Source: Methanobacteriota archaeon (GTDB lineage Archaea > Thermoplasmatota > Poseidoniia > Poseidoniales > Thalassarchaeaceae). Taken from it: a DNA stretch of 58,553 bases. The notes beneath the pieces are model-generated. The model saw nothing but the letters and a program-made list of their open reading frames with translations, had not been told where the DNA came from and ran no database searches. Where the stretch lies: contig JAPOKZ010000003.1 in NCBI GenBank assembly GCA_029977385.1, positions 1 through 58,553 on the forward strand, read 5' to 3'. The translations under genes and the position numbers were made by a program. Within the stretch, counting starts at the first letter, position 1. Each line of letters opens with the position of its first letter. Shown one piece after another: positions 2,091 to 52,977 of the stretch.

Positions 2091-2121
2091 AATGGGCCCC
2101 CCGATTGAATGAATATGAAGA

Positions 2122-2403: not shown

Positions 2404-2416
2404 CAGTAATCACCAT

Positions 2417-2728: not shown

Positions 2729-2738
2729 TTTATCAACC

Positions 2739-31862: not shown

Positions 31863-32666
31863 ATGGGCATTGGCATTACTCACCTCGGTTCTGGTAGTCG
31901 CGGAAATGCCACCTTAATTTCATCTGGAGAGCACAATGTACTAGTTGATTGTGGATTCAGTCTAAGACAGACTGAGAAAAGGCTCAAGATAGCAGGATTT
32001 AATCCAGATTCAATTGATTCGATAGTAGTGACTCACCATCATAAGGATCATTCAGCATCTGCACTAAATGCTTCGAAAAAATGGTCCTCAAATCTGTACT
32101 GCAACGGTGGAACCGCCTCTAGGATGGGGCTATTAGAAAGCGAATTCAGAGAATTCGGGATTCTGGAGAGGATTCAATTTTCCCCCGAACTAAGTATGCT
32201 AGCCATACCTGTGCCCCATGATGATGCGGATAATGTAGCATTGGTTGCTAGCGATGGAAATGGAGAGAGGGCCGCAATTGTAACTGATTTAGGAGAGGCT
32301 CCAGACGACCTAGTGAAGCACCTCTCGGGATGTAACCATATTTCCATAGAGGCTAACTACGATCATGCGAGGCTTATGTCAGGGCCTTATCCTGACTCTC
32401 TAAAGAGGAGAATCTCCGGAAGGGGGGGGCATCTTTCCAATAGCCAGGCTGGAGAGGTTCTTCTTCGATCTATGAGCAAGGGCCTGAGGAGCATTGTTCT
32501 TTGTCACCTCTCGGAGAGTAATAACGCACCTCACTTGGCAGAAAGTGAGGTGCTTCTAGCAATAGGAGACGAGTTTGAAGGAAATATCTCTATCTCAAAA
32601 CAACTAGGACCTGAATTCAGTTACTGGACAGGGCAGGCAGAGCCTAGTGAAATACTGGCTTCGTGA
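31863..32666 (+). CDS. metallo-beta-lactamase-fold hydrolase (YycJ/PhnP-like)
   Basis: HxHxDH motif (VVTHHHKDHS), then PVPHDD, TDLGE and GHLSN motifs. SD-like GGGGGT lies 7 nt upstream of the ATG. Confidence 0.85.
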   Translation: MGIGITHLGSGSRGNATLISSGEHNVLVDCGFSLRQTEKRLKIAGFNPDSIDSIVVTHHHKDHSASALNASKKWSSNLYCNGGTASRMGLLESEFREFGILERIQFSPELSMLAIPVPHDDADNVALVASDGNGERAAIVTDLGEAPDDLVKHLSGCNHISIEANYDHARLMSGPYPDSLKRRISGRGGHLSNSQAGEVLLRSMSKGLRSIVLCHLSESNNAPHLAESEVLLAIGDEFEGNISISKQLGPEFSYWTGQAEPSEILAS

Positions 32667-35195
32667 CTATCGCCCCATTACAGCTCTGTGGACTGAGTTC
32701 TGGACTTCCTTCATCCTTCCAACAGCCCCCAGCTCCCTGAATAGAGAGAGCGATCTCTGAAGATAATTCATCCTCTGTGAACGATCGGTTTCTACCTCAC
32801 CGAGTCTTGCTAGCAGCTCTCCCTGTAGCATCCTAAAGTCGTTTGATTCCGCTACAGCTAGACCGTTGAGGTAGTGCTCGGCCGCTTCCTCCCTTCTACC
32901 CGCATCAATCAAAACCTGACCAAGGAGCATCTCAACTTCCACCGTACTCTGAGGATCATTTTGATCGGAAAGGGTATCCAGTGCTCCAGAGTAGTGGAGG
33001 AGTGCTAGGTCATTGTCAGAAATTTTTGCGTAGTATCTACCGAGGACGGCTCTTGATCTGGCGTGTAGGAAATCCTGATTGGAGTCCTTAGTGTTCTCAT
33101 AGGCAAAAAGAGCGTGTTCCCTGGCCCTATCTAGTTCACCCATCTCAATAAATGCAGAGGCTAATCTAATTCTAGCCTCATTTAGTTCGGGATCTTCCTC
33201 CTTTTCCAGCAGATCTTCGACGTTCCCATAGACCTCGAGCGCTCTTCGGGAGTCCCTCCTCCTTCGGAAAATATGACCCATGTTGTTGTAAGTCCTAGCA
33301 GCACCTACGGCATCCCTAATCTCAATCTGAATCTTGAGGGCGTTTCGATGCAGCTCTAGAGCATCGTCCATTGCCCCTCTCTTTACTGCTATGTCTGCTC
33401 TGGCTGATAGAAGTCGAGCTAGTTCAGAGCTTGGCTTGGTAGTGCCGATATGCTTCGTTGCAACGTCATATTGCTCTTCTGCTTCGTCCCATCTACCCTG
33501 AATAGTCAGTATGTCTCCCTTGAGTTCTCTGATTAGTCCTCTACTCTTTGAATCAAAATCGCTACTTTCCAGAGAGTTGAGGATTGAGAGAAGTTCGGTG
33601 TGTCCAGAACTTACTAGACCGTGCCCCTCTGTAATCAATACCTCTGCTAGTCCTTCTTCATCCCCTGTCTGGCTCAGGTGGTGAATGAACTCTATCCTGT
33701 CTGTAGCGTCGTCCATTTTCCCCCTATACCATTTCACTGCTGCAGTATGGAGGTCGGTTTTCATTTCATAGTCCATAGATCTTAGTAAGAACTCTCGTAC
33801 TAGGTCGTGAACATCGAAATTTTCTGCATCTGACTGCCTTGCCAGGCCCTTTTCGACTAATTCATCTATCAAATCGACGCTTCCCTCGATTTGATGGATC
33901 GCTTGTATGGGAACTGGTTCTCTAAAGACAGCAATCGCCCCAAGTAGACGTTTCTCAGTCCCAGAAAGTCTACTGAAAATCTCCTTTTCTACGAACGCCT
34001 CTAGTGTGGCGTGAAAGGTCTCTGCAACATTCCCCCTATTGATTAGTTCGAGAATTAGTGGATGCCCCCTGGAGAGAGAGTAAATGTGCATGAATTGGTC
34101 CGAATCCATCTTCGGCATAGCGGTGAGAATCTGTCTGCTGGACTCCTCATCTAGTCCCTGAAGAGGCATGACCAGAGTTACGATATTCCCGGCTTGATCA
34201 GATTCAGGGACTACCATCCTAAAAGACCTAGAGAACATCACGAGTCCCACGTCATTCAGAGTATGAATTCGAAGAGTCAGTTCCCTCAGAATCGAGTATA
34301 GCGTCTCATCGCCAACTTTGTGTAAGTCATCAATCACTATCAGTGAGGGAGATTCGGATAAACCATCAGAAATTAGATTCACTGCCAAACTAGTTTGGGG
34401 GACGGGAGTCGAAGACAGATAGTCTGAAAGATCGTTATTTCCAACTGCTGATAGCCATTCGGCACATGCTTCAAGAAATGCCCTAGAGCCCTCCCAGTCC
34501 TGACACCTATGGTAAAGGAGGTTTCTTCGGTGCGTAAATCGATCAAGAATCTTGGTTGATAGCGATGTCTTGCCGATCCCTGCAATCCCTGGAACCAAGA
34601 TTGACGCTGACTTAGCTTCGAGAAGATTTGCCATCACGTCCAATTCTTTCTCTCTACCGTAGAATCTCCTCGTCCTGGGTAAATCATTTAGATAGGAGAC
34701 AAGTTGCTTCTCGATATGCTTGGAAAGGTCCCTCTCAACCAAATCTGACGAAAGTCCCGAAAGGTCAATTGTTCCTGAATCGTCCATGTATCGAAGCATG
34801 TCTACATGTCTAAGTGGTAGTTCTGACGACTCAATAGCCTGTGCCAGAGTTGTTGATTCAGAGCGGCCATCTGAATGAATGACCATGACGTTGTTCTCAG
34901 AAATCCTAGACCAGATTTCATCTGCAACCTTGGCACCCTCGTCCGTTAGGAAGTAGGCTTTCCTCTTCCTGGAGACGCCAGTGACATGGGCCTGCCGTTC
35001 CACCAGATGACCGGCCTCTTTCATTCCAGATATCGCCCTCGGAACATTTGATCTGGCGATTGAGACAGCGTTTGCAATACCCATCTGAGAAAGAGCGAAT
35101 GGGACCTCGACTTTATCGGTGTGATCCACATAGTCACTTAGGTGTAGGAATATCCTTTCCTGCACCCCGGGTCGTGAAGAAGTGCCACCTGTCAT
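32667..35195 (-). CDS. wHTH - P-loop NTPase - TPR regulator (STAND/AAA_16-like)
   Basis: N-terminal winged-helix-like segment (LSQMGIANAVSIARSNVPRAISGMKEAGHLVERQ). Walker A VPGIAGIGKTSL (GKT at 34566-34574) and Walker B LIVIDDLH. The C-terminal ~280 aa consists of TPR-like repeats (...AARTYNNMGHIF..., ...ALFAYENT..., ...ALLHYSGAL..., ...AAEHYLNGL...). Confidence 0.85.
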   Translation of the reverse strand: MTGGTSSRPGVQERIFLHLSDYVDHTDKVEVPFALSQMGIANAVSIARSNVPRAISGMKEAGHLVERQAHVTGVSRKRKAYFLTDEGAKVADEIWSRISENNVMVIHSDGRSESTTLAQAIESSELPLRHVDMLRYMDDSGTIDLSGLSSDLVERDLSKHIEKQLVSYLNDLPRTRRFYGREKELDVMANLLEAKSASILVPGIAGIGKTSLSTKILDRFTHRRNLLYHRCQDWEGSRAFLEACAEWLSAVGNNDLSDYLSSTPVPQTSLAVNLISDGLSESPSLIVIDDLHKVGDETLYSILRELTLRIHTLNDVGLVMFSRSFRMVVPESDQAGNIVTLVMPLQGLDEESSRQILTAMPKMDSDQFMHIYSLSRGHPLILELINRGNVAETFHATLEAFVEKEIFSRLSGTEKRLLGAIAVFREPVPIQAIHQIEGSVDLIDELVEKGLARQSDAENFDVHDLVREFLLRSMDYEMKTDLHTAAVKWYRGKMDDATDRIEFIHHLSQTGDEEGLAEVLITEGHGLVSSGHTELLSILNSLESSDFDSKSRGLIRELKGDILTIQGRWDEAEEQYDVATKHIGTTKPSSELARLLSARADIAVKRGAMDDALELHRNALKIQIEIRDAVGAARTYNNMGHIFRRRRDSRRALEVYGNVEDLLEKEEDPELNEARIRLASAFIEMGELDRAREHALFAYENTKDSNQDFLHARSRAVLGRYYAKISDNDLALLHYSGALDTLSDQNDPQSTVEVEMLLGQVLIDAGRREEAAEHYLNGLAVAESNDFRMLQGELLARLGEVETDRSQRMNYLQRSLSLFRELGAVGRMKEVQNSVHRAVMGR

Positions 35196-35249
35196 GGAAA
35201 CTCAACTCTTGGACTCACTCAATAATGTTCGGAGGACCTGTGAATCCAA

Positions 35250-38200
35250 TTATTCCTGGAAATCTGGATCGGGTATCCATTCCTCTGATTCGGAGTCCCA
35301 TAGCCAACCGGGGTGGTCTTCGTACCTTTCTAGTCCTGTTTCTTCCTCAGTAATTTCATTCGAATCTTCTCCTGACCACCATTCTTCACCTTCAGGAATT
35401 TGGGCTGGTTGCTTCACCCCCTCATCATCTTCTACCTCTATTCCGATGAATCCTGTGAAGAATGCCAGAACCAGGAGGGCCGCGAGAGTTAGCACGACTA
35501 TTCCTATGACTACGACCATGCTAGTGGAGTCTGATGTTGGTTCTCCCTTGGATATGGGGGTCACTTCTGTAGTTTGGCCGGCATATGAGAATTCAGGAAT
35601 GGAGGATTCGCCTTTGATTCTAGAGGCAGGGACTCCAAGTTCCCATGTTCCATCTTCCTGAACAACTGTGGTATTCACAGGATTTCCGCCGATTGATACT
35701 GAGACTTGCTTTCCCGGTAGTCCAATTCCAGAATATATTGCAATTCCTTCCGAATAGACCCAAGTCTGGTTGGGCTCTTGAATTGTGAATTCCAAAGGAA
35801 GTACCCGGAATGTGACTGGTAGGGAGTTAGCCTTCGAGTCCCAGGCATCTGTTGCGATGAAAATAACATTGTTTAGAGTCCATGCATCCATTTCCTCCAC
35901 ATAGAACAGCATATCTGCTGGGTCATATCGAGCTATCCCATCAGTTCCGACCCCCACAACTAGCGGATATATGTCGTCGGAGTCGATGGAGGGATCATTG
36001 TAAACTGACATGAACTGGATATCATTATCAATATCTGAGAAATATTCATTCAGATCTATCTCCACTGTTGTGCACTTATCAACCGAAATAGATTCGGTAT
36101 CACAATAGAGAACAATCTCGCTCTGCCAACCGGATTGGGAGAACTCTGGTTGATTGTTCCCGACGTTAGGGGGGTTGTCTGCGGTGATTATCACATCCAC
36201 CCAACTACTGTAGTCAATGCCATCATAAGAGCGGAATCTTAGTTGATACTCTGCATCGTGTCTAAGTTGGGTGGTATCCCAATTAATCTCCCACTCACCT
36301 TCTTCCGAAAACTCGCCTGTACTTGTTTCATGGACGGTGACGTAGTCGTTAGATACGTCTCTTACCTCTAAATCTACTCTGGTAACCCCTCCATCGAAGT
36401 CTCTGGCGACCCCACTGAGTGAAGTATCAGTTGATGAGGGAACGCGTGTCCCCGAGATAGGTTGGTTTACGCTAATCGTTGGCTGGCTGTTTCTGTTGTC
36501 AATTGTCAGAGTGAGAGTTACTGGCTGGCACTCATCTACTTCGCCTATGCAGAAGTCGGAGTCTGATGCCCAAATCGTGAATGTGTAGGTTGTCAGTTCT
36601 CTTGGCCTAGTACTGAAATCCCATTCCCAGCCCCAAGTTCCATCTTCATTTGTCTGGACTGGGCTAGTAACCTGGTAATTTGGGCCAGAAATATCCATGT
36701 ACACAAGGCCAATATCGCTATTGCAGTCTTCAGGGCAACCGTATGGGTCTTGGGCGAACCCATCGAAAATTACTGATCCCTCGTCATGTGATGAAAATGA
36801 ACTAGGGGATGTGACGAATACTGTGGGTGGTTGTGTGTTTAGTTTGATTGTCCTGGATACCACTGGGCTGTAATCTATCCCATCGAAGGCTCGGAATTCG
36901 AACGTGTAATCTCCCTCTCCCGCCATACCAGTCATGTCGATACTGTAGTACCATGAGCTGAAGGGCCTGTTGAATCGCGTTACTTTACCCTCATCTACAC
37001 CACTAGTGTCAATTGCATATTCGGCACTCTCCCATGATCCAGTAAATGGATTCCTGACCTGTACTTCGTGAACGTATCCGCCCTGGTCCCATTGTGCCCT
37101 CTCGTCTGTGGGATAGCTGTTGGCCAGAGTCCCATCGTATGCGCTTCCTGTGATATTGACTATTCTTCGGAATGAGTGGCCATCTTCCTGTGTAACTATT
37201 ACCGTCGGAGCCTGATTCTCAAGGTTAGCAGTCTCTTGTAGAGAGTTCTCTTCTAGTGTGAATTCTCCCGAGTAGTAGCCATAACCGAATCTATATGCGG
37301 TATATCTGTACAAGGAAAGTTCCCTTGTTCCTGCTGAGTAGTCGCAGCTAGGATCGGCTGTGTCCACAATCAGGTCGCCGTCATTGTCAATTCCGTCAGA
37401 GCAGGAGTCTTCGTACTCGTCATCGGCGAAGCCATCCGGATTGTCGCCGCCCCCTAGTCCTCTGAAATCAAGATGGAAGTTTGAAGGAAGTGCGATCCAG
37501 GGGGTGAATCCATCTCCTCCAGAGTTGACTCGGTACAAGTCGTTTCCGAGTGCATCCTCAACTATGACTAGGGCATCACTGACTTTTTCCCCCCCAATTA
37601 GAGTTTGGAATCTTACCAACTCGGCCCTACTCACTTGGACTGCAAAGTGTGTTGGCTGTGTAGCGATTTTCACCTTTGATAGGTCCAAGTTAGTCAGATC
37701 TGCGAAAGTGAAGACTGTGGAGTTATTATCCATGCTAACTCCCAGTGGGAAGTTCCTGGGAGTCATGTTCTGACAATTATTACAGTCCTTAACCGGAGTT
37801 GGGATAATGGCTCCTTGGAATTGATTGTCGGGCCATGCCTCCTGGTCTGGCCAAGATAGTTTTACTGGGTATTCTCCACTAGGAGGCGATGGGATATACT
37901 CGGACTGTGCTGTTACTGAGCTCTTCGTGACATTGTAAACAGATTCTGCTTGGTTCCAATCGTTCTCAGAGAAGTAGGCTAAGGAGCCGTATTGCTGTGA
38001 GTCAGCATATCCACTATCGTAATTTTTGATTACTGCTCCGGTCTTCTGGATGTCGAAAGAATTCCGTTGGATGTCCAAGAGCGAGCCCACGGCCCTAATT
38101 CCATCTGCTGTACCACTTGCGGTGATTATGTTGTCGTACATTGTCACCCCTGTCAAGTATGCATGTAAAACGGGACATGAGAACTGTCCGCCCCAATTGG

Positions 38201-39539
38201 TATCGCTGCTGCACGTACCGGCTCCATCGTATGAAATCGAGTTGTTTGCCAGGTAGAGTCTTGATGCTGCTTGAATAGAATAAGAGTACATTCCCGCAAC
38301 TACCGGGGTGAGGGAAGTTTCGAAGATTGAGTTGTTCTCAGCGATTACATCGTAAGAACCACCCAGCCATAGTCCGAAATATCCACCTATGGGCCCAATC
38401 TCATTCCCGTGGATATGGGCCTCGCTATTGTATACTGCTACCCCTGAACCTGATGCAGCCCCTCCGATTTCATTATCGGAAATGTCCACAAGTGCCCCTG
38501 CTGCTGAAAATATCCCTGCACCATCGACTGTTGTAATTTCGTTGTTGGAAATATCGAAGTTGAAAGATGTCCCTCCAACTGCCTTCTTCCCATTCAAGTC
38601 AATACCATTACAATTCACATTGATTGCAGAGTTTGTTACGCTACCGGCTGACGTCCATAGTCCAATTCCGAAGTCGCCGGATTGGATGTCAGCATTGTCG
38701 ATATCGATAAATGAGTTCTCGGCCCATATTGTATGCCTGCCATTATCTCTGTTCCCACAGCCGTTGTTAGTTCCAGTCAAGGAAATATCAGACAAGGAGA
38801 ATGGACTCACAGATGAGCCTGAAGAATAAATTTGGAGAGCGGCGCCAACTATTCCGGTGTTGGCATCTATTCCAACTGCAAAGTCTCCACCATTGAATGA
38901 GGGTTGGGCTAGGTTAGTAGTTAGTACACTGGAGGTATTAATTTGATTGAAGGACAGTTCTGTGAGAGTTGGGCTGGCACCATCTAGGACTAGGGCCCCA
39001 TATCGAAACTCCCCCACTGCAGAAACATATTGTGGAATTCCCCAAGCACTATCGAAATTAACGTATCTCAAACCTGTTTCGGCTAGATCGATAGAACTCC
39101 TCATCAGGACTCCCTCGCTGCAAGAAGGGTCATTTATCCAAATCTCTTGATTGCCATAGCTCATCCCGTAGCACTCCCCTGTTGCACTTGCATTGACTGG
39201 CTCACTCCACCTTAGGTTGATCCTCATTGCTGGGCCTGCATTGGAAGAAGCCCCGCATGATGCGACTCCGGCGCAAAGACTCCCCCTTACATCGAGATGC
39301 GTTCCGTTGGGAAATTCAATCGTTGCCCCGGGGTTGATTATGAGTTTAGCACCAGGGGCTATCGTTACATCGCCAGTGAGTGTGTGTACCCCTGCCCAAG
39401 TCTCAGTCCCAGTAATGGTGCCTGATGTCGTCTCATTAGAAGCTGAAACAGTACTGGCTGGCAATGAAAGAGAAAGTAGAATACTGAACAGAAACAATCC
39501 GGTCAGAGACAAAGACCGTAACTTTCTGTCCCGGGCCAT
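35250..39539 (-). CDS. giant surface protein: right-handed parallel beta-helix (PbH1/NosD-like) region plus Ig-like repeats, C-terminal TM anchor and acidic Trp-rich tail
   Basis: - Signal peptide ...LLSLSLPASTVSA.
- About 600 aa of G/N/S/I-rich beta-helix-type repeats (e.g. NNEITTVDGAGIFSAAGALVDISDNEIGG).
- A Cys/Asp-rich insert CSDGIDNDGDLIVDTADPSCD.
- At least four ~100-aa Ig-like repeats ending in F(R/D)..DGIDYS-type motifs.
- TM helix MVVVIGIVVLTLAALLVLAFFTGFIG (about 35445-35518), then a tail of about 64 aa. Confidence 0.9.
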   Translation of the reverse strand: MARDRKLRSLSLTGLFLFSILLSLSLPASTVSASNETTSGTITGTETWAGVHTLTGDVTIAPGAKLIINPGATIEFPNGTHLDVRGSLCAGVASCGASSNAGPAMRINLRWSEPVNASATGECYGMSYGNQEIWINDPSCSEGVLMRSSIDLAETGLRYVNFDSAWGIPQYVSAVGEFRYGALVLDGASPTLTELSFNQINTSSVLTTNLAQPSFNGGDFAVGIDANTGIVGAALQIYSSGSSVSPFSLSDISLTGTNNGCGNRDNGRHTIWAENSFIDIDNADIQSGDFGIGLWTSAGSVTNSAINVNCNGIDLNGKKAVGGTSFNFDISNNEITTVDGAGIFSAAGALVDISDNEIGGAASGSGVAVYNSEAHIHGNEIGPIGGYFGLWLGGSYDVIAENNSIFETSLTPVVAGMYSYSIQAASRLYLANNSISYDGAGTCSSDTNWGGQFSCPVLHAYLTGVTMYDNIITASGTADGIRAVGSLLDIQRNSFDIQKTGAVIKNYDSGYADSQQYGSLAYFSENDWNQAESVYNVTKSSVTAQSEYIPSPPSGEYPVKLSWPDQEAWPDNQFQGAIIPTPVKDCNNCQNMTPRNFPLGVSMDNNSTVFTFADLTNLDLSKVKIATQPTHFAVQVSRAELVRFQTLIGGEKVSDALVIVEDALGNDLYRVNSGGDGFTPWIALPSNFHLDFRGLGGGDNPDGFADDEYEDSCSDGIDNDGDLIVDTADPSCDYSAGTRELSLYRYTAYRFGYGYYSGEFTLEENSLQETANLENQAPTVIVTQEDGHSFRRIVNITGSAYDGTLANSYPTDERAQWDQGGYVHEVQVRNPFTGSWESAEYAIDTSGVDEGKVTRFNRPFSSWYYSIDMTGMAGEGDYTFEFRAFDGIDYSPVVSRTIKLNTQPPTVFVTSPSSFSSHDEGSVIFDGFAQDPYGCPEDCNSDIGLVYMDISGPNYQVTSPVQTNEDGTWGWEWDFSTRPRELTTYTFTIWASDSDFCIGEVDECQPVTLTLTIDNRNSQPTISVNQPISGTRVPSSTDTSLSGVARDFDGGVTRVDLEVRDVSNDYVTVHETSTGEFSEEGEWEINWDTTQLRHDAEYQLRFRSYDGIDYSSWVDVIITADNPPNVGNNQPEFSQSGWQSEIVLYCDTESISVDKCTTVEIDLNEYFSDIDNDIQFMSVYNDPSIDSDDIYPLVVGVGTDGIARYDPADMLFYVEEMDAWTLNNVIFIATDAWDSKANSLPVTFRVLPLEFTIQEPNQTWVYSEGIAIYSGIGLPGKQVSVSIGGNPVNTTVVQEDGTWELGVPASRIKGESSIPEFSYAGQTTEVTPISKGEPTSDSTSMVVVIGIVVLTLAALLVLAFFTGFIGIEVEDDEGVKQPAQIPEGEEWWSGEDSNEITEEETGLERYEDHPGWLWDSESEEWIPDPDFQE

Positions 39540-39587
39540 TGTCCTTCGGACGACAACATGCCAATATAACCATAGGTTATTCTGGCA

Positions 39588-40850
39588 TCAATTTGCATCA
39601 GGTGAATCGGGGGTCTCGCTGCCAATTCCGAACTCTTTCTGAACCTGATTTGACCACTCAACTGCATCTAGTAGGCCATATCCCCTCTTGTCATCGTGAG
39701 TCTGAGTATGCTCTTCTGTTTTGTCAGCCGAATTAGCCAGCGCAACCTTGACTAATCGCATCTCTTGCTCGTCAATTTCTCCATCATCTCCAGCAATTTG
39801 TTCACCGTGAATAGCCAGTATGAGAGCCAGTGCACCAGTAACCATCACAGTGGAGTCGCTAGTTCCTGTTGAGAAGGCGTAGGGAGGGTCCCTCTCACTG
39901 TCTATGCAGGACCAGAGGTCAACTCCGGGAGCTAGGATCTCGGGTTTCTGGTTCGGGAACGTCCGATTTTGACCTGTTTCTGGGTCAACTAATGACCCCA
40001 CGGCACTATCTTTCCAAGGATCTCCGGATTTTCCGTGGGCCCCAACAGCAATGACTCCCGGGAGGCTTGCAGGCGATGAAACGTCTGAAGAGTCCTGCTC
40101 TGGATCAAGATTTCCCGCGGCTGCGACTACGAAAATACCCTCTCCGAGAGCCTCTCTTACTGCTTCTATGGTATCAGAGGAAGAAGCGAAAATGGATCCT
40201 GGCTCAGAACCTAGACTGAGAGAAATTATGTCGGAATCCTGAGATATTCTGCACCATCTTATGGCTTGAGAGACCATTCTTTCATTGGCTGACTTGCCAT
40301 CTGGGCCTAGTGCAATAGCCACTGATAACGAAACTTCAGGGGCCGCCCCTACAAATGATCCGTTTGCAACTAGCAGCCCGGCCATCAGTGTTCCATGGCT
40401 AGCCAAGCCGATATCTCGGATTGGATCGTTCACCTCGGTGTAGAAGTCACGGAAGCCCTCCAAGGACAAGTCATAGAAGTCGGGATGGGAGATGTCTATC
40501 CCGGTGTCTACTATGCATACATTGACCCCGTCGCCCATTGTTCCAGAACGCTGAAGTTCTCTTATTCCAGAGTCTTCGAAGGCCCATTCTGAATCTAGAA
40601 CATTACCAAGTACAGAGTATATTGAAGGATAGACCAGCATTATTGAGACTACAATGGCCGAGAATCCTACCGCCCCCCATGGCCAAAGAAATTTGATTAG
40701 TGGGTCCATTGGCCATCTCAGTTTCCTTGCTTCCTGGTCTGTGAGGCCATATGCCTTTCCGGGATAACCCGGTGCGTCCGTGTCCACTGCAGTCAGTAGG
40801 CTTGAATCCTCAGGCTCTGGCATGAGTTCGAGATGCGAGATTCCGCGCAT
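39588..40850 (-). CDS. membrane-anchored subtilisin-like serine protease (peptidase S8)
   Basis: N-terminal TM helix (FLWPWGAVGFSAIVVSIMLVYPSI). Asp motif VCIVDTGIDISHPDF (Asp codon 40506-40508) and His motif SHGTLMAG (His codon 40395-40397). The Ser motif GTSDSTVMV (Ser codon 39858-39860) lacks the usual M-A-x-P context. Confidence 0.9.
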   Translation of the reverse strand: MRGISHLELMPEPEDSSLLTAVDTDAPGYPGKAYGLTDQEARKLRWPMDPLIKFLWPWGAVGFSAIVVSIMLVYPSIYSVLGNVLDSEWAFEDSGIRELQRSGTMGDGVNVCIVDTGIDISHPDFYDLSLEGFRDFYTEVNDPIRDIGLASHGTLMAGLLVANGSFVGAAPEVSLSVAIALGPDGKSANERMVSQAIRWCRISQDSDIISLSLGSEPGSIFASSSDTIEAVREALGEGIFVVAAAGNLDPEQDSSDVSSPASLPGVIAVGAHGKSGDPWKDSAVGSLVDPETGQNRTFPNQKPEILAPGVDLWSCIDSERDPPYAFSTGTSDSTVMVTGALALILAIHGEQIAGDDGEIDEQEMRLVKVALANSADKTEEHTQTHDDKRGYGLLDAVEWSNQVQKEFGIGSETPDSPDAN

Positions 40851-40881
40851 GTTTGTCCAACCCTGTCTCGAGGTCGTAGTA

Positions 40882-43800: not shown

Positions 43801-46800
43801 TCTGTATCTTCCGGGTTCCAGCGATACTTCGGCAGTCCCAGAGCCAATCCACTCTGGGCCATCAGATTCTACAGTGTAACCAGCCCCGTTGGGAGAGAGT
43901 GGCTTGATCTCGAAAGGATAGTTTACAGGCGTACCGTTTGATGCGTTGTTGTCCCCCTCGTGATCGATGAAGAAGTCGATTTGTACGGTACTGTTCTCAA
44001 GTGGTAAAGCGAGTAATTCTACTACTCCCTCCATCGAGGAATTGACTTCCTTGATCACTGAATTGGATGACATCCCTCCTGCATCAAGGGTAAATGACCA
44101 GTTGCCCATAGGCAGGAGCATGTCGAAGCGCCCCAGGTCATCAACCTCCTCTCTCCAAACGGCAGTAGTTTCGCCATCGAGGTTGTTTGCTAAGGCATGG
44201 ACAGGATACCATCCAGAGAATCCTTGATTGTACGTATTACCTTCACGGTTCAGGCTTACTTCGCCCAGGACCATCATCGAGTCCGTGAGTTCTATTGTTA
44301 TATTTTCCATCCCTTCTTCTACTTGGAAGCTGGTACCGTTTGAGTAGAATCCTCCGGCACCGACCATCCTCTCGACTGTTGCCTGGACAACTGCGCCACG
44401 AGGTAGGAGGACGCTGAACTCGCCGAATGAGTCTGTTGAGGATATTAGGGTGAACCCTTCCCATTGGAAAATAATCTGTTGGTTATTAACTCTGGATTCC
44501 AGCTGAGACGCTGATCCATCCTTATCTGGTTTGTTCAATACAATTCCGTTCACAGATTGACTGACGAGGAACTGGAATGATTCGGAGATATCTGATTCTG
44601 CGACCTTCACCCTTTGCCATAGTTGCTTGTCATCACCCAGAGTGTAGTTCAGAACCCAATCGCCGTGAAGTAATTCTGCATGGTAGGTTTTTGTGTCGTT
44701 ATCGAAAATTGCCGATACTGGTGCCAGATTCTGATCCTCAGGCAGGAATTGCAACTCTAGGTCGTCCACACTTGTTCCTTCGTCTGATAGTGTGAAGGCG
44801 ATATCGGATGTTCTAGGGATTTCCGATGGGAATGAAACCAAGGTTCCTTGATCGGATTCAAAGGTGAAAATCTGTGACAATTCTGGGAATCCGTCCTCGT
44901 CTATATCTATTTCAGCGATGTAGGTTCCTGGCACTATTGGACCCACTTCGAAAGATCCAGTTTCATCAGTGGTCGTGAAGCATGGCTGAGTTATTACCCC
45001 CCGGCATTGTATCTGAGAGTCCGCGCTTGATCCATTGATTGAGAATATTGAAATCCTTTCATCGGAAATTGGTTGACCCGAATACAACGACACTTGGCCC
45101 TTTATTGCGCCCCCGTATATCGAAACTGGGGATTGAACATCTGAGGAAGATAGAGGAATCCTGAATGGAGTTGTCAACTCCACGGGACTTCCTGTACCGA
45201 AATCGACCGATAATACGTATTCTCCCGGTAGGGCGTCTACAACGTGGAAAGATCCTGGGCTGACCATGGGGCCACTGAAAAGTGCGTGTCCCGAGAAGGT
45301 CCCAGTACCGTTTATTGTCCCATAGGATGATAGATTGTGATTTGCATCTGTGACGAATGTACCAGAGCCTATGAAAGTGGCTTGGAATAGGTCTCTAGTA
45401 AACTCGCTGATCTCAATCGAAGTGAACTTTCCAGAGCCGTTAATTGTCCCGTCAATAATGTAGTTGCCCTCGCTAACTAAGCACGCGTCCGAGCCATCCG
45501 GGACTGAATCTCCAGAACAATCAGGATAGGTGCCTGAGATTGAGCCATCGAATGTGCCCTTTCCGGAGAATTGTCCCTGCCCAGTTATGCTATGGTTGTC
45601 ATAGATGGTCTGGGTATGAGATCCGGTGAATTCCTGAACAGAAACTGAACCCATGCTCTCAACTGAACCCTCTCCAATGAAGGTCGCTTCTCCGGTTCCT
45701 GTGAACCTCAAATCCTCGCCCTCCATGCTTCCGTCGGAGGTCATGGCAACATAGGGATGGATGGTAACCTCATCCGAGGATGGAGTGAGTACGACTTGTG
45801 CCGAGATTACCGGCTCTCCGTCGAAGTCCAGTTCTCCTGACCACTCTAGGATTCCGGCAGCGGACGAGGGGGAAACTGAGATAGGGGCCTGAATAATTGA
45901 TTTGCCGTTACTATGACCGTCTATTCCAGAAATATTCACGACCGTTTCAGATAGCCATGTAGAGCCGTATACGTTTCCGAGAATCCCAGTTACTGCATTC
46001 ACATTCCTATTTTGGGAGCTCTCGACGAATAGTTCTTGCATGGAGGAGCCGGATCCCGTCATCAGCGAGGATCTGGCCGATTCTAAGTCTGGCTCGCCCG
46101 AGAAAGCGGATACTCGGATCTTTCCTGCTGGCACCTTGAATGAGAAAAATCCGTCTTCATTAGCCTGAGTGCTGCCGATAGGAATCCAGTATGTTCTGGA
46201 ATCTCTATCGACGACATGACTCTCATTGGCCTCTTCCCCACTGAATGCATCCCTCTCAATCAGAATCCTAGCATTCGGAACTGGGCCAATTCCATCGAGA
46301 GATACGGTGCCCTCCAGAGTAGCGCCGCTGTAGTACTTCAGAATCTTCACGTTTCTATTAGAGTCGTAGATTGAGCCGCAGTACTTGTCAGCCTTGCCGG
46401 TTAGAACGAAATCTGTCCCGTTGCTTGTGTTGGTAGCGGCATTGCTGATATCTATGCTCTTGGAATCGAATGAGATGGCGCTACTGTAGGTGGGAATGGA
46501 GGAACCTGTTGGAATAACTCCTTCTTCGAATTGTGTGACCTCCCATGGCCCTCCCGACTGAATGGCTGACCAGCCTGTTGAGAGGGTAGCGTCTGTTGAC
46601 AGGGTAACGTCTGTCAGCTTGGTTGAGTCTGTAACCGTAGAAGCCGATCCGGTAATCTGGATTTCTTGGCAATGGGATCCATTGGTCGGATCGTACCAAT
46701 TGGATAGTACGAAGTGATTCATCATTGCCCCGGGAAGAGCCATGGAACCCTGTAGATAGCTCCCTGGAGTCCCTGTTAGTGAGTTTGGTAGAATCCAAGT

Positions 46801-49800
46801 AGATGGGGTGTCGGCATCTCCAACCTGTCCGCTGATTGAGGGCAAACCAAGGGTCGATGTCCCATAACCCACATACGTCCTTGCTATCATTGTATCAAAG
46901 AAACCTGCCTGGTGCTGGTAATTCCTGTCCGTGAGTTGGATCATATCCTCGCCGGTGGAAGCGCCCGATGCCTGTGCCCTGAGGTCGGACATCTGTTGGT
47001 CCAAGAATTCCTGGAGGGTCTTTGGACCCTGATTAGTCTCATAGGTAGTGGTGATGTAAGTATCCATATCTAGACCAGAGAGTCCTGTTGGTGCGTGGAA
47101 AATGCCCGAATATGCCCCCCTGTGATATGACTGGAAGTCCCGATACGCACTTCCACCTAATGGATAGAGGCGGTTATCCACAGCGAAGTATCTGATTTCG
47201 TGATTCCTTGCTGTTGTACTTCCATGGGATTCCTCGAAGTCGGACACCTCGTAGTTGTCGATAGATGAAATCTTGTGGTATACGCTAACGAGTTGGTCCA
47301 AGTCCAATGCGGCTGTTAGGAAGGCTCTAGCCATTCCAAACTTCGCATTAGTGCGGTGAATTTCCGTGGAAACGTCGTAGTAGTCGTCAATTATGTCCCG
47401 AGTGTATAGATAGCCACCGACGTTGTAGTGCTCGGCGTCTTGGAAATCGAGGATTTCGTACTCTGAATTCAACCCTGATCCTCTTGCGTTGTTGAATAAG
47501 GTTCTAGCCTCAGATAGATTAGCAGTGGGTTCTTCGTACTGTTGCCCTTCCTTGATGACAATGAACATATGGCCAGCATCGATCATGGGCATCCCATTAT
47601 CATCCAAAGGATTACCCTTGAGCATCTGAACCTCATCGTACTCAGCGACTACTGCCATGGATCGTTTTTCCAGGAACTCCAGATCCCTGTTCGATAGGAT
47701 ATCTTGGAATTCATTAATCTGTTCCTCGGACAATTCTGGCCCCAGTGCGGCGAGGAAATCTGACCCAAGATTTGCACCGCCATTCAATTTCTTGTCACCG
47801 AAGGCGAGTGTTGAGATGAACAAAGAGATAGTATCTTCCTGTCCCGAAGATAGGAGCATTGCTCCGCTACTCGGGATTCCTGACTGGAAGTTATCTGCCA
47901 CGGTAGGGTGATCCCCCGATGCTAGGGCTTGGAAACCATAATCCCACCAAGATACAAAGGCTGGTCTTTCGCTGAAAGGATCGTTTTTGTCCTGCTCTGA
48001 AAGCCACTCATATGCCTCATTCCAGCCCTGTCCACCGAAGCTTGGCCCAAAGGTTCCCATATACCACAGGCCCGATTCGCTAGGATCGTATTGTTCGCTG
48101 TTCATAACGGAGAACAAACCCAGTAAATCCTGGCGTAGAATATCTGGAGCCAAGTCGTAGATGCTCTGGTCCACTTCATTTGCCGACTTGTCATTGCCTG
48201 GTATGCCAGAATCGATCCCATATGTGGCATGCTGAGAAGAGATCAACAGGATTACCATGATCATAGCAGGAATTCCTGGCCTTGCCTTCGTTGCCGGCCA
48301 TAGGGATCTGAAACGAGTCCTTGGAGTGCCTATTCCTGAGTTTCTCCAAACCTTGGAAAATGCTGGCATTCCTGCGGCCCCCCACAGCATTGAGATTCCG
48401 ATACCCCCTACAACCGCCATAGCTGGAGTCGCGTTGATGATGAATCGACCTGCAGACCAAGACATGTAAGATGCGATTAGGGTCCAGAGACCCAATAGCG
48501 TTAGTTCTGATTGATTCTTCCTGCTTCCCCTCCAAAGGAGAATTATGGCGCACCCTATAGCAATGACAGCTACTATTGGGCCATAGGATGCGAATAGTCT
48601 TCCTCGATCAGGAGCTTGGGCCTCTCCAATCGTCAGGAAGATCTTGTTCTTGGAAAAGTAGAATCCACCTGTGAAGAGGATATCCCAGCCGTTGTACAGC
48701 TGCGCTTCCTGAAGAATGAAGAGTATCGCAAGAATCGAACCGAAAAGTGCGCTACCGCCCATTACTATCAGAAGCCATGGCTTGTCTCTGAATGAGCTGG
48801 AAATCCAACCCATAGCGAAAGTGAATCCGATGATGTAGAACATAGGTTGCATACCACTGGGGGCGAAGAGCAGGTTCATTCCCGGCCAAGCGTAGAACGG
48901 TGCGGGGATTAACATGGAAGTGAACATCATCTGAAGAGATGCAGATGTAAATTGTAGACTGTCCCTTCCCTTGAAGATGTTTACCACAACTTGGAATGAA
49001 TATGCTAGGAAGAGAATTCCTGGACCATAAACGAAACCCTTCCAGCCTAGTGCCATAATAGAGAATGCTATTCCCGACATTGTTGCATTTGCCATTAGGG
49101 CTGGATTGCGCTTCCAAGTCTCCCTAATCCCTGCAATGACATAGAGTGGATTTGCGCTTGTCGACTTGAAGACCTTCTTGTATTGGATTTGTTCGAGGCC
49201 TTTAATCCAGAAATATAATGCAATCGCCAGGAAGAGCATGGCGAATGAGTCGTGGTCAGCATATGCGAAGGTAGAACGGCTCAGATGTCCGGGCATTAGT
49301 GCAATGAGCCATGCGGAAATTATTCCCGCATTCCTGCTGTGTGCACGCGAAGCGATTCCTGCGACTGGGACAACAATCAGAGCCCCATAGATTGCTGGAA
49401 GTGAAGACATTGCCCACCATACTGCTTGCTCTGAAGGAATCTCAAGTAACCAAGAGAGGGCTATTCCACCTAGAGCCAAGGACCATGAGAATAGAGGAGG
49501 TCTTGGATTAATCCCACCCAATGGGTAAGCCCTGTCATGATCGTAAATCAGGTGACTCCTCTCAGCGATTACGTAATCGACGACACGCTTCATGTACCAA
49601 GGGTCGGAACCACCAGACATGTCCCAAAGTCCGGTTCCACTAGCGTTCATCGCGGGTATTACATTCCACGCTACTCGAACGACAAGAGCGGTGATGAATG
49701 CTAAAGATACCATCAGAAAGTAAGAGTTCTCATTCCACCAGACTCTGAATGGGCTTTTCTCCCTTCTAGGAGCAACATCGCCGAATACCCCTCTTGATGA

Positions 49801-50862
49801 AAAGAAGAATGCGAAGAAGTTCAACCAGAAACCCAGGAAAAACCATGTGAATGACTCGATGAATCCTCCCTGTGAAAATAGGGAAGGGAGCTCGTTTCCT
49901 ATTTCGTGGATGTGCCCGATGGAGTAGAGAATCCAGTTTACAGCTAGAAGAGATGCTATTACGTGCCATCCCTCGGCCCTGAAGAAAGCATGAGTGAAGA
50001 TTACCAGTGCGGTGAAAGAAGCCCATGACACCCCTAGATGGCTTCCCTCGGAGTACTGGGACAGGTTGTCTAATTGGCCCAACCAAATAAGTGGAATCAT
50101 GAAAGCTGAGAATATCAATGCTGAATATGCTGCAGCATCTGGGCTCTCCTTGATTGATGGGAGCATTCTGAAGAAACGTCCAGAGCCCTTATTTTCCACC
50201 GTACCCCTGACAAGAATCATTACTAAGATTCCAAGAGAAATTGAAGCGAGCCAAAATGAGAAGAATGCGCTTCCTATCGACTCTCTGACCGGGTCCACCA
50301 CCGCCTCCGAGTCATTTTGTGCGATTGCAAGTCCAGATGCATAAACCGCGGCCAATCTCATCCCTAGAATAGAGCTGATGAAAATGGAGGATTCCTCAAG
50401 CCTCCCAGATTCATTCAGTAAAGCCGATACCAACCCTACTAAGAAAAAGGTAGTTGCGAACATGTGATTGAAGGAGTCCGGATCAATAAAGTTGGAGACA
50501 GCGCCCAATGCAAGAAGGACAACTGTAAGGGAGCCGATTCGTGAGACACCTGACTCAAGAGGAATCATTCTTGATGATCTTCCGATACATGCGGGTACCA
50601 AGACTGATAGCGTAACAAGAATAGAGGAGTCGAGTTCGTTACCAAAATCCCTGCCCTCTAGAAATGATGTAACCAGAAACAAAGATAGCAACGATAATGC
50701 AATTGCAACTGGAGTAATCAGGTTACCAAATTGGGCATCCTTGGAGCCCTCTTTCTTCGCTTCCATCCCATCCACCGGACCTATTTGCCAATAATTCAGC
50801 ATCGCGCCGACCTGAACGGTTGTTTTAACCGTTCGTAGAACGGTCGGAGATAAGGGACTCAA
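40882..50862 (-). CDS. aglB: giant oligosaccharyltransferase AglB/STT3 fusion protein (3326 aa)
   Basis: - STT3-family motifs occur in order: EL1 SDPWY (Asp codon 49603-49605), ADHD (49249-49257), TIxE motif FLTIGEAQAP (48622-48633), WWDYGF (47932-47949) and the following PTVADNFQ.
- The core is preceded by about 375 aa containing about 10 hydrophobic helices.
- It is followed by about 1900 aa of beta-sandwich repeats, a TSP3 block (42068-42219), CARDB-like domains and a terminal TM helix (about 40921-40971).
- The track start is TTG at 50862; ATGs at 50802 or 50766 are alternatives. Confidence 0.9.
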   Translation of the reverse strand: MSPLSPTVLRTVKTTVQVGAMLNYWQIGPVDGMEAKKEGSKDAQFGNLITPVAIALSLLSLFLVTSFLEGRDFGNELDSSILVTLSVLVPACIGRSSRMIPLESGVSRIGSLTVVLLALGAVSNFIDPDSFNHMFATTFFLVGLVSALLNESGRLEESSIFISSILGMRLAAVYASGLAIAQNDSEAVVDPVRESIGSAFFSFWLASISLGILVMILVRGTVENKGSGRFFRMLPSIKESPDAAAYSALIFSAFMIPLIWLGQLDNLSQYSEGSHLGVSWASFTALVIFTHAFFRAEGWHVIASLLAVNWILYSIGHIHEIGNELPSLFSQGGFIESFTWFFLGFWLNFFAFFFSSRGVFGDVAPRREKSPFRVWWNENSYFLMVSLAFITALVVRVAWNVIPAMNASGTGLWDMSGGSDPWYMKRVVDYVIAERSHLIYDHDRAYPLGGINPRPPLFSWSLALGGIALSWLLEIPSEQAVWWAMSSLPAIYGALIVVPVAGIASRAHSRNAGIISAWLIALMPGHLSRSTFAYADHDSFAMLFLAIALYFWIKGLEQIQYKKVFKSTSANPLYVIAGIRETWKRNPALMANATMSGIAFSIMALGWKGFVYGPGILFLAYSFQVVVNIFKGRDSLQFTSASLQMMFTSMLIPAPFYAWPGMNLLFAPSGMQPMFYIIGFTFAMGWISSSFRDKPWLLIVMGGSALFGSILAILFILQEAQLYNGWDILFTGGFYFSKNKIFLTIGEAQAPDRGRLFASYGPIVAVIAIGCAIILLWRGSRKNQSELTLLGLWTLIASYMSWSAGRFIINATPAMAVVGGIGISMLWGAAGMPAFSKVWRNSGIGTPRTRFRSLWPATKARPGIPAMIMVILLISSQHATYGIDSGIPGNDKSANEVDQSIYDLAPDILRQDLLGLFSVMNSEQYDPSESGLWYMGTFGPSFGGQGWNEAYEWLSEQDKNDPFSERPAFVSWWDYGFQALASGDHPTVADNFQSGIPSSGAMLLSSGQEDTISLFISTLAFGDKKLNGGANLGSDFLAALGPELSEEQINEFQDILSNRDLEFLEKRSMAVVAEYDEVQMLKGNPLDDNGMPMIDAGHMFIVIKEGQQYEEPTANLSEARTLFNNARGSGLNSEYEILDFQDAEHYNVGGYLYTRDIIDDYYDVSTEIHRTNAKFGMARAFLTAALDLDQLVSVYHKISSIDNYEVSDFEESHGSTTARNHEIRYFAVDNRLYPLGGSAYRDFQSYHRGAYSGIFHAPTGLSGLDMDTYITTTYETNQGPKTLQEFLDQQMSDLRAQASGASTGEDMIQLTDRNYQHQAGFFDTMIARTYVGYGTSTLGLPSISGQVGDADTPSTWILPNSLTGTPGSYLQGSMALPGAMMNHFVLSNWYDPTNGSHCQEIQITGSASTVTDSTKLTDVTLSTDATLSTGWSAIQSGGPWEVTQFEEGVIPTGSSIPTYSSAISFDSKSIDISNAATNTSNGTDFVLTGKADKYCGSIYDSNRNVKILKYYSGATLEGTVSLDGIGPVPNARILIERDAFSGEEANESHVVDRDSRTYWIPIGSTQANEDGFFSFKVPAGKIRVSAFSGEPDLESARSSLMTGSGSSMQELFVESSQNRNVNAVTGILGNVYGSTWLSETVVNISGIDGHSNGKSIIQAPISVSPSSAAGILEWSGELDFDGEPVISAQVVLTPSSDEVTIHPYVAMTSDGSMEGEDLRFTGTGEATFIGEGSVESMGSVSVQEFTGSHTQTIYDNHSITGQGQFSGKGTFDGSISGTYPDCSGDSVPDGSDACLVSEGNYIIDGTINGSGKFTSIEISEFTRDLFQATFIGSGTFVTDANHNLSSYGTINGTGTFSGHALFSGPMVSPGSFHVVDALPGEYVLSVDFGTGSPVELTTPFRIPLSSSDVQSPVSIYGGAIKGQVSLYSGQPISDERISIFSINGSSADSQIQCRGVITQPCFTTTDETGSFEVGPIVPGTYIAEIDIDEDGFPELSQIFTFESDQGTLVSFPSEIPRTSDIAFTLSDEGTSVDDLELQFLPEDQNLAPVSAIFDNDTKTYHAELLHGDWVLNYTLGDDKQLWQRVKVAESDISESFQFLVSQSVNGIVLNKPDKDGSASQLESRVNNQQIIFQWEGFTLISSTDSFGEFSVLLPRGAVVQATVERMVGAGGFYSNGTSFQVEEGMENITIELTDSMMVLGEVSLNREGNTYNQGFSGWYPVHALANNLDGETTAVWREEVDDLGRFDMLLPMGNWSFTLDAGGMSSNSVIKEVNSSMEGVVELLALPLENSTVQIDFFIDHEGDNNASNGTPVNYPFEIKPLSPNGAGYTVESDGPEWIGSGTAEVSLEPGRYRIVVERANSSADEPFDTLYDTNEIFDVEIEASTIVRSVGFEPRWLTNITFRNESGELLSNHEIKLESVDSGWVQTFLTDEGGMLVEYLHEGDWIVIVDDFETDSEVLEGLRMDISVNQDSAGTRYNFYTQELAHVALTLQSSSELANAEEIEITVTSQEGLGSFQTSVDGLDQAVEIRLVPGLWNVQVNQTSQNGVRILLENSTLIESGVTVGPDHQIYMTVQKLVRLSGKVFWDLDADGTPGFSEGLANATVNLAGNDESLQIITSEDGEWSTFLPSLSSWNISVEKAGFDSQNTTVELGESSLNEDIEISAGEVEVSGTISYLDQDCVSNGDWSVVIIPSHGIARDRVQVSGNSEGDWTTLLQPGSWVAYSTTSGTSPDCQGLVSIDPIDVGVEGGSVDSELTIGGILNLDTSWLDFEGAEHELIEIEGYELVIDFNSMSWVEELDEDGTLSLLLLPGTIQTSSDFELVEEGRNVSYSGGKGVTIRAGQESPLSTLSIERVSKQDVSLAVQGEETVLVNELDQTCTNDVDGDGVINGEDAFPLDSSEWNDNDGDGIGDNADPDDDEDGTIDSDDDFPLGQGLFENQVPGCKYNDAYFNVTVDYQGHNSLDEYTAVGTVPGADGAQWSVEFQNSTGSWSNMHSFDLGLGNSDLSEIIKIRVVPANVGSAHHFPMGHKVLVKLSTNQGYSTQLELTVEVPPVRGLEVYEPDNVYFDIDERAVTMEIPFKNIGNSDELFFFEFEQSDWWEVAGPSTQPASPFSDGTATFTFVRSSETELPSQYTEEITFTVTDQNNNSYQGETILVMDAPSLSINGGSVDLLGSDFATYGEIETYSLSISNTGNVDADSVTLSAALCSDIRCENFVGVNATSSGSVPANSEATFLINMDFTQFDEPKKYFIKFYIEGELTAEISEPCAENLPEGESSCVFEAQLWASSEENDNLQYLTYAFLAMLLAALLYFTRRPSRRVSAPF

Positions 50863-50877
50863 GAAGAATGAGTATTC

Positions 50878-52152: not shown

Positions 52153-52201
52153 GCTTCGCGCTGGTCATTTCAGTGATAATGGATTGCACTACAAGGTATG
52201 G

Positions 52202-52924: not shown

Positions 52925-52977
52925 TTATTTTTGGATAAACAAACAATAGATTGTTCGATCCGAAAGGGGTGATATTC

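Follow-up and report, generated by a model that had tools for sequence, protein, structure and literature searches.

The 58,553-nt stretch of DNA analysed here, referred to below as the window, is chromosomal and belongs to an uncultured archaeon of Candidatus Poseidoniales (Marine Group II, MGII), probably of the MGIIb family. It carries four consecutive minus-strand genes, encoding (i) a giant STT3-type oligosaccharyltransferase (AglB), (ii) a membrane-anchored subtilase (S8), (iii) a beta-helix surface protein (PbH1) and (iv) a STAND-type regulator (STAND). On balance, we favour the view that these genes are a fixed part of a gene string conserved throughout the order, i.e. an envelope neighbourhood of separately started genes, and not a self-contained operon for a single adhesin. 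The envelope is the place of action of three of the four products. The most remarkable element of the locus is the order-wide giant AglB with its adhesin-like, sequon-rich, doubly anchored tail.

An earlier note on this DNA had described the run as four minus-strand genes separated by 54, 48 and 31 nt. The listing of open reading frames (ORFs) reproduces these gaps and places the genes at 32667-35195 (STAND, 842 aa), 35250-39539 (PbH1, 1,429 aa), 39588-40850 (S8, 420 aa) and 40882-50862 (aglB, 3,326 aa as called). The domain assignments made for the four genes also hold, Pfam agreeing with each of them.

Conservation of the gene order

The same note had proposed that the four genes form a self-contained unit, and retention of the order aglB-S8-PbH1-STAND in relatives was set beforehand as a test of this proposal. 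The order turned out to be invariant across both Poseidoniales families, which left the proposal standing on this point. Seven out of seven metagenome contigs anchored on aglB (AglB identity 40-72%) show the same order and the same strands. Their common layout, with (-) marking genes on the strand opposite to the run, is a gene for a 570-630-aa protein (-), carS, purD, aglB, S8, PbH1, STAND, a gene for a metallo-beta-lactamase (MBL)-fold hydrolase (-) and a gene for a giant protein of ~1,900 aa.

When GTDB was scanned with one genome per species, 337 relatives were found, and the gene order was read among the matches listed (80 of 337 loci). Among these 80 loci, contigs running past aglB all show S8, PbH1, STAND, the MBL gene (-) and the giant, and every missing gene coincides with a contig end. 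Species representatives with contigs long enough to show the order number ~54 for S8, ~53 for PbH1 and ~47 for STAND, and the corresponding spacers were counted in ~53, ~53 and ~47 species. All four genes are also kept in three more distant loci, probably of the MGIIa family, in which the identity is 42-49% for PbH1 and 57-58% for STAND.

Rearrangements within the carS-to-STAND run were seen in none of ~60 genomes, the breakpoints lying outside it. Upstream of the gene for the 570-630-aa protein, the flank varies in three ways among the aglB-anchored contigs. On the other side, loci L088 and L089 carry two or three genes inserted after STAND, ahead of the usual place of the MBL gene; in L088 the inserted genes part the MBL gene from STAND, and in L089 the MBL gene is absent from that position. 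The order recurs in the MGIIb metagenome-assembled genome (MAG) SIMO Bin 19-2 (PMC9723583), where pcp, dnaJ, arcS and rpS15 come next, just as in the window, and the synteny extends over at least 34 kb. The eggNOG seeds given in that source (MG2_1285 to MG2_1279) indicate that the first MGII genome shares this order.

Gene spacing, predicted promoters and transcript levels

The four genes are co-directional and closely spaced, as expected of an operon, yet their spacing equals the genome background. Co-directional unrelated pairs elsewhere in the window lie 4-73 nt apart, e.g. 39 nt (adk to S8-CARDB), 60 nt (S8-CARDB to gapdh), 22 nt (rnhB to gltX) and 23 nt (gdh to HD), and the coding density of the window is 91%. 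The short gaps within the run are therefore not distinctive, distances of 20-70 nt being normal between unrelated genes here. Upstream, the presence of purD and carS was borne out; the gap of 15 nt reported between purD and aglB was not, because it resulted from extension of the ORF to a TTG at 50862. With the aglB ATG at 50766, the two genes are 111 nt apart, and across species this spacer is the longest of the run (median 111 nt, range 78-122).

When the spacers were aligned across species, strongly conserved AT-rich boxes emerged ahead of purD (CCATTATC), PbH1 (CCCTATGnTTAAATC) and STAND (AACATTCTTGAGTGA), each 25-30 nt from the start; a weaker AT-rich box lies directly after the aglB stop codon, before S8. 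On the minus strand of the window, the purD box is GCAATCCATTATCAC (52173-52187; conserved in this spacer in 65 species). The S8-PbH1 spacer (39540-39587, minus strand), conserved in 53 species, contains the box CCTATGGTTATATTG at 39562-39576, with a TATA-like core ~27 nt before the ATG. The PbH1-STAND spacer (35196-35249, minus strand), conserved in 47 species, contains the box GAACATTATTGAGTGA at 35215-35230. A distance of 25-30 nt fits the TATA boxes of leaderless archaeal mRNAs, and the arrangement at aglB fits a leadered mRNA.

In the aglB 5' region (50767-50877, minus strand), the palindrome CCGTTCtacGAACGG occupies 50829-50843 and a TATA-like TTAAAA occupies 50823-50828; there is also a conserved leader, and a Shine-Dalgarno-like GGTGGA (50771-50776) precedes the ATG. 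About 75 nt of the region are conserved across 71 species and in alignment A5. Across species, GAACGGTTAWAACA lies ~60 nt before the start, and the region also has a GC-rich segment, the small inverted repeat GAGCCTTnAGGCT and a Shine-Dalgarno-like GGTGAT. The consensus of the TATA-like element is GGTTAWAACA; the inverted repeat is degenerate in this window, and in one clade the palindrome becomes CCATTC..GAATGG. Pair counting over the palindrome and the leader hairpin gave one covarying pair in the palindrome (GC 14 / AU 11), which probably reflects a single event; this single pair is too weak for an RNA structure or operator to be assigned. A search for the box GAACGGTTAWAACA as a shared operator across the window found it only at its own site. 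The region is a candidate aglB-specific operator or leader element.

Runs of five or more T residues are rare in the spacers, so read-through between the genes is possible. A scan for bacterial-type promoters and terminators gave counts equal to those of shuffled sequences and is uninformative for an archaeon.

Transcript levels were taken from the two best-covered metatranscriptome samples of PMC9723583. The normalised coverages (samples 1/2) reported there are 0.45/0.19 for carS, 0/0.08 for purD, 0.35/0.38 for aglB, 0.18/0.16 for S8, 0.16/0.18 for PbH1, 0.19/0.18 for STAND, 0.01/0.05 for the MBL gene and 0.10/0.07 for the giant protein. The four genes are thus similar in coverage (0.16-0.38), and purD (0-0.08) and the MBL gene (0.01-0.05) are lower. 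In the DESeq2 statistics of the same source, the log2 fold change is +2.05 for aglB (adjusted p 0.06), +1.91 for PbH1 (not significant) and -0.05 for STAND (not significant). Two marks of an operon, the absence of internal promoters and co-expression, are therefore not seen here: conserved boxes are predicted inside the run, and the fold change of STAND is flat. Independent promoters with uncorrelated expression had been named beforehand as grounds for giving up the single unit. Promoter-like boxes belonging to individual genes were indeed found, and expression gave a divided picture, aglB and PbH1 rising together and STAND remaining flat.

The giant AglB

The database protein identical to AglB has 3,306 aa and starts 20 codons later than the called ORF. 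The only start kept in eight orthologues is M13 of this 3,306-aa form, i.e. the ATG at 50766, which gives a protein of 3,294 aa (40882-50766, minus strand). Its assignment as an STT3-type oligosaccharyltransferase draws on Pfam, NCBIfam, the structure PDB 3waj and sequence motifs. The STT3 domain (PF02516) scores 50 bits, above the curated threshold of 24.5. Similarity to PDB 3waj is weak (E = 1.8e-7), and the match to the NCBIfam archaeal STT3 model TIGR04154 (E = 1.6e-47) reaches 162 bits against a cutoff of 450 bits. By these scores, AglB is a relative and not a member of TIGR04154, the archaeosortase-A-associated STT3. The orthologue in the MAG of PMC9723583 is recorded there with a dbCAN GT66 match (E = 9.3e-75).

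At the sequence level, the giant AglB carries the following STT3 catalytic motifs. WWDYG of the external domain (47935-47949, minus strand), identified in the translation and in alignment A1, is invariant in the eight orthologues of that alignment and nearly invariant in 35. The acidic loop motifs SDPWY (the first D) and DHD (DxD-type), together with TIGE (of the TIXE/SVSE type, in external loop 5), are all invariant in alignment A1; we take their catalytic roles, by analogy, to be those assigned in solved STT3, PglB and AglB structures. No DK or MI motif was located after WWDYG. A crude hydropathy scan gave 10 N-terminal segments, compared with the 13 transmembrane (TM) segments of the STT3 topology, and the first ~350 residues consist of extra membrane segments that matched no family when slices were run against Pfam.

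The membrane part is followed by an Ig-like, sequon-rich tail of ~2,300 aa, closing in a second membrane anchor. The extracellular extension (residues ~1361-3250; 41017-46686, minus strand) appears as an all-beta, sequon-rich stalk of tandem Ig-like/transthyretin-like domains. The AlphaFold2 (AF2) model of residues 1361-2500 (pLDDT 80) consists of tandem all-beta domains, and Foldseek matched the tail model to Gram-positive pilins, adhesin stalks and macroglobulin (MG) domains. Pfam gave weak CarboxypepD_reg matches in the tail; slices of the tail and of the N-terminus gave almost nothing. At 45277-45729 (residues ~1680-1830) G-x-G-x-F repeats were observed, for which AF2 gives beta-strands of up to ~40 residues, unlike the neighbouring Ig-like domains. 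The C-terminal TM anchor and a basic tail with an invariant SAPF (40885-40977, minus strand) were recognised from the translation, hydropathy and the invariant R..APF.

AglB contains 40 sequons against 25 expected, and its tail 32 against 18.3; the ratio of observed to expected sequons has a median of 1.7 over 61 orthologues. The tail is the most sequon-rich protein segment of the block. Homologues of ~3,150-3,340 aa were found in more than 100 clusters, and those with names are from Ca. Poseidoniales/Marine Group II. The MAG table of PMC9723583, in the part covered, lists only one aglB/GT66 oligosaccharyltransferase gene; on that listing, AglB cannot be dedicated to a single substrate. The protein is almost certainly the cell's general oligosaccharyltransferase, as judged from this gene count. 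A search of the literature found the giant AglB or its neighbourhood in MGII described nowhere in the searchable literature; PMC9723583 lists the gene as aglB, without comment.

The subtilase and the beta-helix protein

The S8 gene (39588-40850, minus strand) encodes a protein with an N-terminal cytoplasmic tail, one TM segment and an outside catalytic domain. The prediction of a membrane-tethered subtilase with an extracellular catalytic domain is supported by hydropathy, which places the N-terminal anchor at residues ~55-84. Peptidase_S8 (PF00082) matches with 122 bits over profile positions 1-288 of 288, and subtilisin BPN' is matched with E = 1e-22. In an alignment of 61 orthologues, each residue of the triad D115/H152/S331 is at least 95% conserved. 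The cytoplasmic tail of ~50 aa before the TM segment (window 40689-40850) is conserved in orthologues.

PbH1 (35250-39539, minus strand) is a secreted protein of 1,429 aa. Besides its signal peptide it contains a right-handed beta-helix (~550 aa) and Ig-like domains, and its C-terminal end carries a TM segment and a conserved cytoplasmic tail. Its description as secreted and C-terminally anchored agrees with hydropathy, which supports both the signal peptide and the C-terminal TM segment. Pfam detected Beta_helix (PF13229, 32.2 bits, cutoff 25.9) and Big_7, and the AF2 model of residues 1-760 (pLDDT 86) has the strand pattern of a solenoid. Foldseek returned only generic matches for the beta-helix (tailspike, lyase, adhesin; TM score 0.4 or less), so that no enzyme family can be assigned, and a sequence search of PDB gave no match. 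With an identity of 54-84%, PbH1 is about as conserved as purD. The Trp-rich C-terminal cytoplasmic tail (HPGWLWD..EW[IV]PDP; window 35253-35459) is also conserved.

A count of N-x-S/T sequons in PbH1 had been suggested as a check on its glycosylation. It revealed no enrichment (13 against 14.7 expected); their positions, in contrast, are conserved, 10/13 being kept in at least 80% of 54 orthologues, compared with 1/12 for the reversed motif and 0-36% for other control motifs.

The STAND regulator

The last gene of the run (32667-35195, minus strand) encodes a STAND protein of the PH0952/MalT type, with a putative winged helix-turn-helix (wHTH), a nucleotide-binding oligomerisation domain (NOD) and tetratricopeptide repeats (TPR). 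AAA_16 scores 37.3 bits (cutoff 32.6), TPR_12 scores 58.6 bits among matches to many TPR families, and PDB 6mfv (PH0952) matches with E = 1.4e-28 over residues 172-479. The Walker A motif GIAGIGKT is conserved. The N-terminal HTH_Crp_2 match is weak (18.9 bits, below the cutoff of 27); a homologue matches HTH_Crp_2, HTH_27 and MarR_2, and relatives are annotated as MarR/PadR-type in their source records. No other gene of the block is as conserved as STAND, which has 71-90% identity where purD has 59-78%. A library clustered at 50% identity contained one orthologous cluster at 53%, the next being at 32% or less.

Some homologues again lie beside giant secreted proteins. On a 171-kb contig (JGI Ga0366824_1000019; loci L091 and L092), two wHTH-STAND-TPR paralogues, with 26-27% identity to STAND over the full length, alternate with four giant secreted protein genes. 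The giants have 1,724-3,948 aa (the flanking ones 2,100-3,900 aa), and their domains are of the CARDB, Big, LTD and peptidase C11/M14 families. This contig is likely to represent a different, Thermoplasmata-related lineage, the nearest named homologue being P0407 of a Thermoplasmata archaeon. On several low-GC marine contigs, a shorter wHTH-AAA16 gene is divergent from a gene for a secreted WD40 protein of ~1,150 aa. These arrangements give suggestive but thin hints that the STAND family tends to control large surface proteins.

Flanking genes

The upstream edge of the invariant block is formed by the gene for a 589-aa protein (52951-54720, plus strand), which is divergent from carS and keeps its place and its strand wherever a locus includes upstream sequence. 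The protein has N- and C-terminal TM segments (18-36 and 556-574) and a weak CARDB match, and is assigned to no family. With 30-58% identity, it evolves faster than any other member of the block. The neighbouring carS (52202-52885, minus strand; CDP-archaeol synthase, Pfam CarS-like, 92 bits) probably starts at the ATG at ~52885, not at the GTG of the ORF at 52924, the homologues having 204-229 aa. It is followed by purD (50878-52152, minus strand), encoding phosphoribosylamine-glycine ligase (Pfam GARS_N/A/C).

Downstream, the MBL-fold hydrolase gene (31863-32666, plus strand; Pfam Lactamase_B/Lactamase_B_2) is convergent with STAND, with a 0-nt gap to the STAND stop codon, and it holds the same position in all informative MGIIb loci. 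Homologues of the hydrolase have precomputed matches to the Anti-Pycsar Apyc1 MBL family. The downstream giant of the block (25984-31698, minus strand) is a secreted TSP3-repeat protein of 1,904 aa (Pfam TSP3_bac), conserved in position. Its gene overlaps the next one, a 179-aa ORF at 25464-26003, by 20 nt, and the pair recurs in locus L090 and as genes 310/311 of the published MAG. No junction of the four-gene module is as tight and operon-like as this overlap.

The remainder of the window consists of archaeal housekeeping genes (adk, gapdh, pheT, gltX, rnhB, rpS15, arcS, dnaJ, gdh) and two more genes for giant secreted proteins. At 3402-8165 (minus strand) lies a second, much larger subtilase of 1,587 aa, in which S8 is combined with CARDB and Ig-like domains and which has both a signal peptide and a TM segment at its C-terminus. 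The four-gene module is thus not the only place where an anchored or secreted S8 protease is encoded. An Rfam scan of the whole window matched no family.

Interpretation of the locus

In the unit proposed in the earlier note, which would be co-transcribed and self-contained, AglB, the subtilase and the regulator would serve PbH1 exclusively, in its production, glycosylation, processing and control. We consider this unlikely. The invariance of the order across Poseidoniales would suit it, but purD, carS, the MBL gene and the further giant protein are kept just as rigidly, so the notion of a self-contained set falls. The genes are co-directional with short gaps, yet these are typical of the genome and the genes never overlap. 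The scarcity of oligo-T runs would permit read-through, whereas a conserved promoter-like box is predicted for each gene. As for glycosylation, the conserved sequons of PbH1 lend indirect support to the idea of an N-glycosylated surface protein; AglB dedicated to PbH1, however, does not fit the single oligosaccharyltransferase gene listed for the related MAG, nor the fact that the richest set of sequons lies in AglB's own tail and not in the unenriched PbH1. The parallel shift of aglB and PbH1 in one dataset (PMC9723583) would agree with common control, but STAND is not co-regulated with aglB in the same published statistics. A putative role of STAND as a regulator of surface proteins draws thin support from the giant-protein neighbours of some homologues.

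At the other extreme, the order could simply have been inherited in a streamlined, slowly rearranging lineage, the products being unrelated beyond the fact that three of them are common envelope proteins. This explanation, which we hold to be possible but doubtful, accounts well for the unrelated housekeeping genes in an invariant block of at least 34 kb (PMC9723583), for the independent predicted boxes, for the uncoupling of STAND from aglB in the published statistics and for the general abundance of giants in the window. It accounts less well for the distribution of breakpoints, since rearrangements occur at the block edges and after STAND (L088/L089) and are absent within carS-to-STAND. The wHTH-STAND homologues that flank giant secreted proteins elsewhere, and the transcript levels of S8, PbH1 and STAND, which in PMC9723583 are alike and differ from those of purD and the MBL gene, also argue against it. 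STAND NTPases and subtilases are moreover known in defence systems, and PADLOC gave a subtilase match (E = 1.6e-16) and a weak PDC-S27 match to the NTPase; an anti-virus locus combining an Avs-like STAND NTPase with a protease effector is nevertheless highly improbable. The PADLOC matches reflect generic family similarity and no credible system, the genes are single-copy and fixed in position with STAND at 57-97% identity order-wide (the opposite of defence-island behaviour), the N-terminus of the regulator seems to be of the DNA-binding type seen in PH0952, and hydropathy places the subtilase facing outward.

The envelope neighbourhood of separately started genes, which we prefer, has its own weak sides. 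The promoter-like boxes were recognised by conservation and spacing only, the metatranscriptome values are of low coverage with aglB alone approaching significance, and the substrates of the subtilase are putative. The conserved string holds purD (purine synthesis), carS and the MBL hydrolase gene, with pcp, dnaJ, arcS and rpS15 beyond; in view of these unrelated housekeeping genes, conserved adjacency alone is no proof of functional coupling. Four genes for proteins of at least 1,400 aa fill 42% of the window, and a giant neighbour is fairly expected for any gene. Finally, the high-GC/soil homologues of STAND have ordinary neighbours, i.e. the link with giant proteins is not universal.

Functional coupling within the envelope-gene neighbourhood is plausible. 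The genes would be separately initiated transcription units, possibly with read-through, whose products meet at the cell envelope. AglB would N-glycosylate proteins generally, PbH1 and its own tail being among the substrates, and the subtilase would trim or shed surface proteins. STAND would bind a ligand via its TPR domain, multimerise with ATP and activate the promoters of neighbouring giant surface proteins. The conserved cytoplasmic tails of PbH1, S8 and AglB could be docking peptides for a cytoplasmic partner, e.g. the TPR domain of STAND. A bolder version appears rather improbable to us: AglB, the subtilase and PbH1 would form a physical envelope assembly, with AglB embedded in a self-glycosylated, doubly anchored stalk or canopy of ~2,300 aa, PbH1 as the core envelope glycoprotein and the STAND TPR domain sensing the tails. 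The tails in question are the HPGWLWD..EW[IV]PDP segment of PbH1, the N-terminal one of S8 and the C-terminus of AglB (RRxSAPF; window 40885-40917).

MGII are among the most abundant archaea of the surface ocean and are uncultured. For an enzyme as central as the oligosaccharyltransferase, a giant AglB of ~3,200-3,300 aa with a self-glycosylatable adhesin-like stalk, present order-wide, is a very unusual form, and its fixed neighbours (an anchored subtilase, a highly conserved, putatively glycosylated beta-helix protein and a PH0952-type regulator) are concrete candidates for the biogenesis and control of the MGII envelope.

Comparison with known systems

AglB resembles AglB-L of Archaeoglobus fulgidus (PDB 3WAJ; GT66/STT3) in its STT3 membrane domain and in the motifs SDPWY, DHD, TIGE and WWDYG. 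At 3,294 aa it is far longer than AfAglB-L (875 aa): ~350 membrane residues are added at the N-terminus, and an Ig-like, sequon-rich stalk of ~2,300 aa ends in a second TM anchor. In Haloferax and Methanococcus, genes for N-glycosylation (agl) are clustered around aglB. There, as here, aglB keeps fixed neighbours; unlike in the agl clusters, these include no glycosyltransferase, flippase or sugar-nucleotide enzyme. They encode a protease, a surface protein and a regulator on one side of aglB, and on its upstream side they are purD and carS.

The subtilase shares with the mycosins of type VII secretion systems and with haloarchaeal halolysins a membrane-tethered S8 domain with an intact triad, and its best NCBIfam match is a mycosin (106 bits, under the mycosin cutoff of 278 bits). 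It differs from both in that its anchor is N-terminal and carries a conserved cytoplasmic tail; it lacks a detectable I9 propeptide, and no secretion-system genes were found nearby. The S-layer glycoprotein of Haloferax, with archaeosortase ArtA and the PGF-CTERM system, is the model of a large, N-glycosylated, C-terminally anchored surface protein, and PbH1 shares this concept. Unlike the PGF-CTERM proteins, PbH1 lacks the PGF-CTERM motif and ends in a TM segment followed by a conserved acidic tail of ~70 aa; the window contains no archaeosortase gene. Lastly, STAND shares with PH0952 of Pyrococcus horikoshii and with MalT (PMC6468293) a NOD ATPase and a TPR sensor, and its N-terminus may likewise be of the DNA-binding type. 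It differs from them in a wHTH that is only weakly detectable and in being exceptionally conserved and syntenic.

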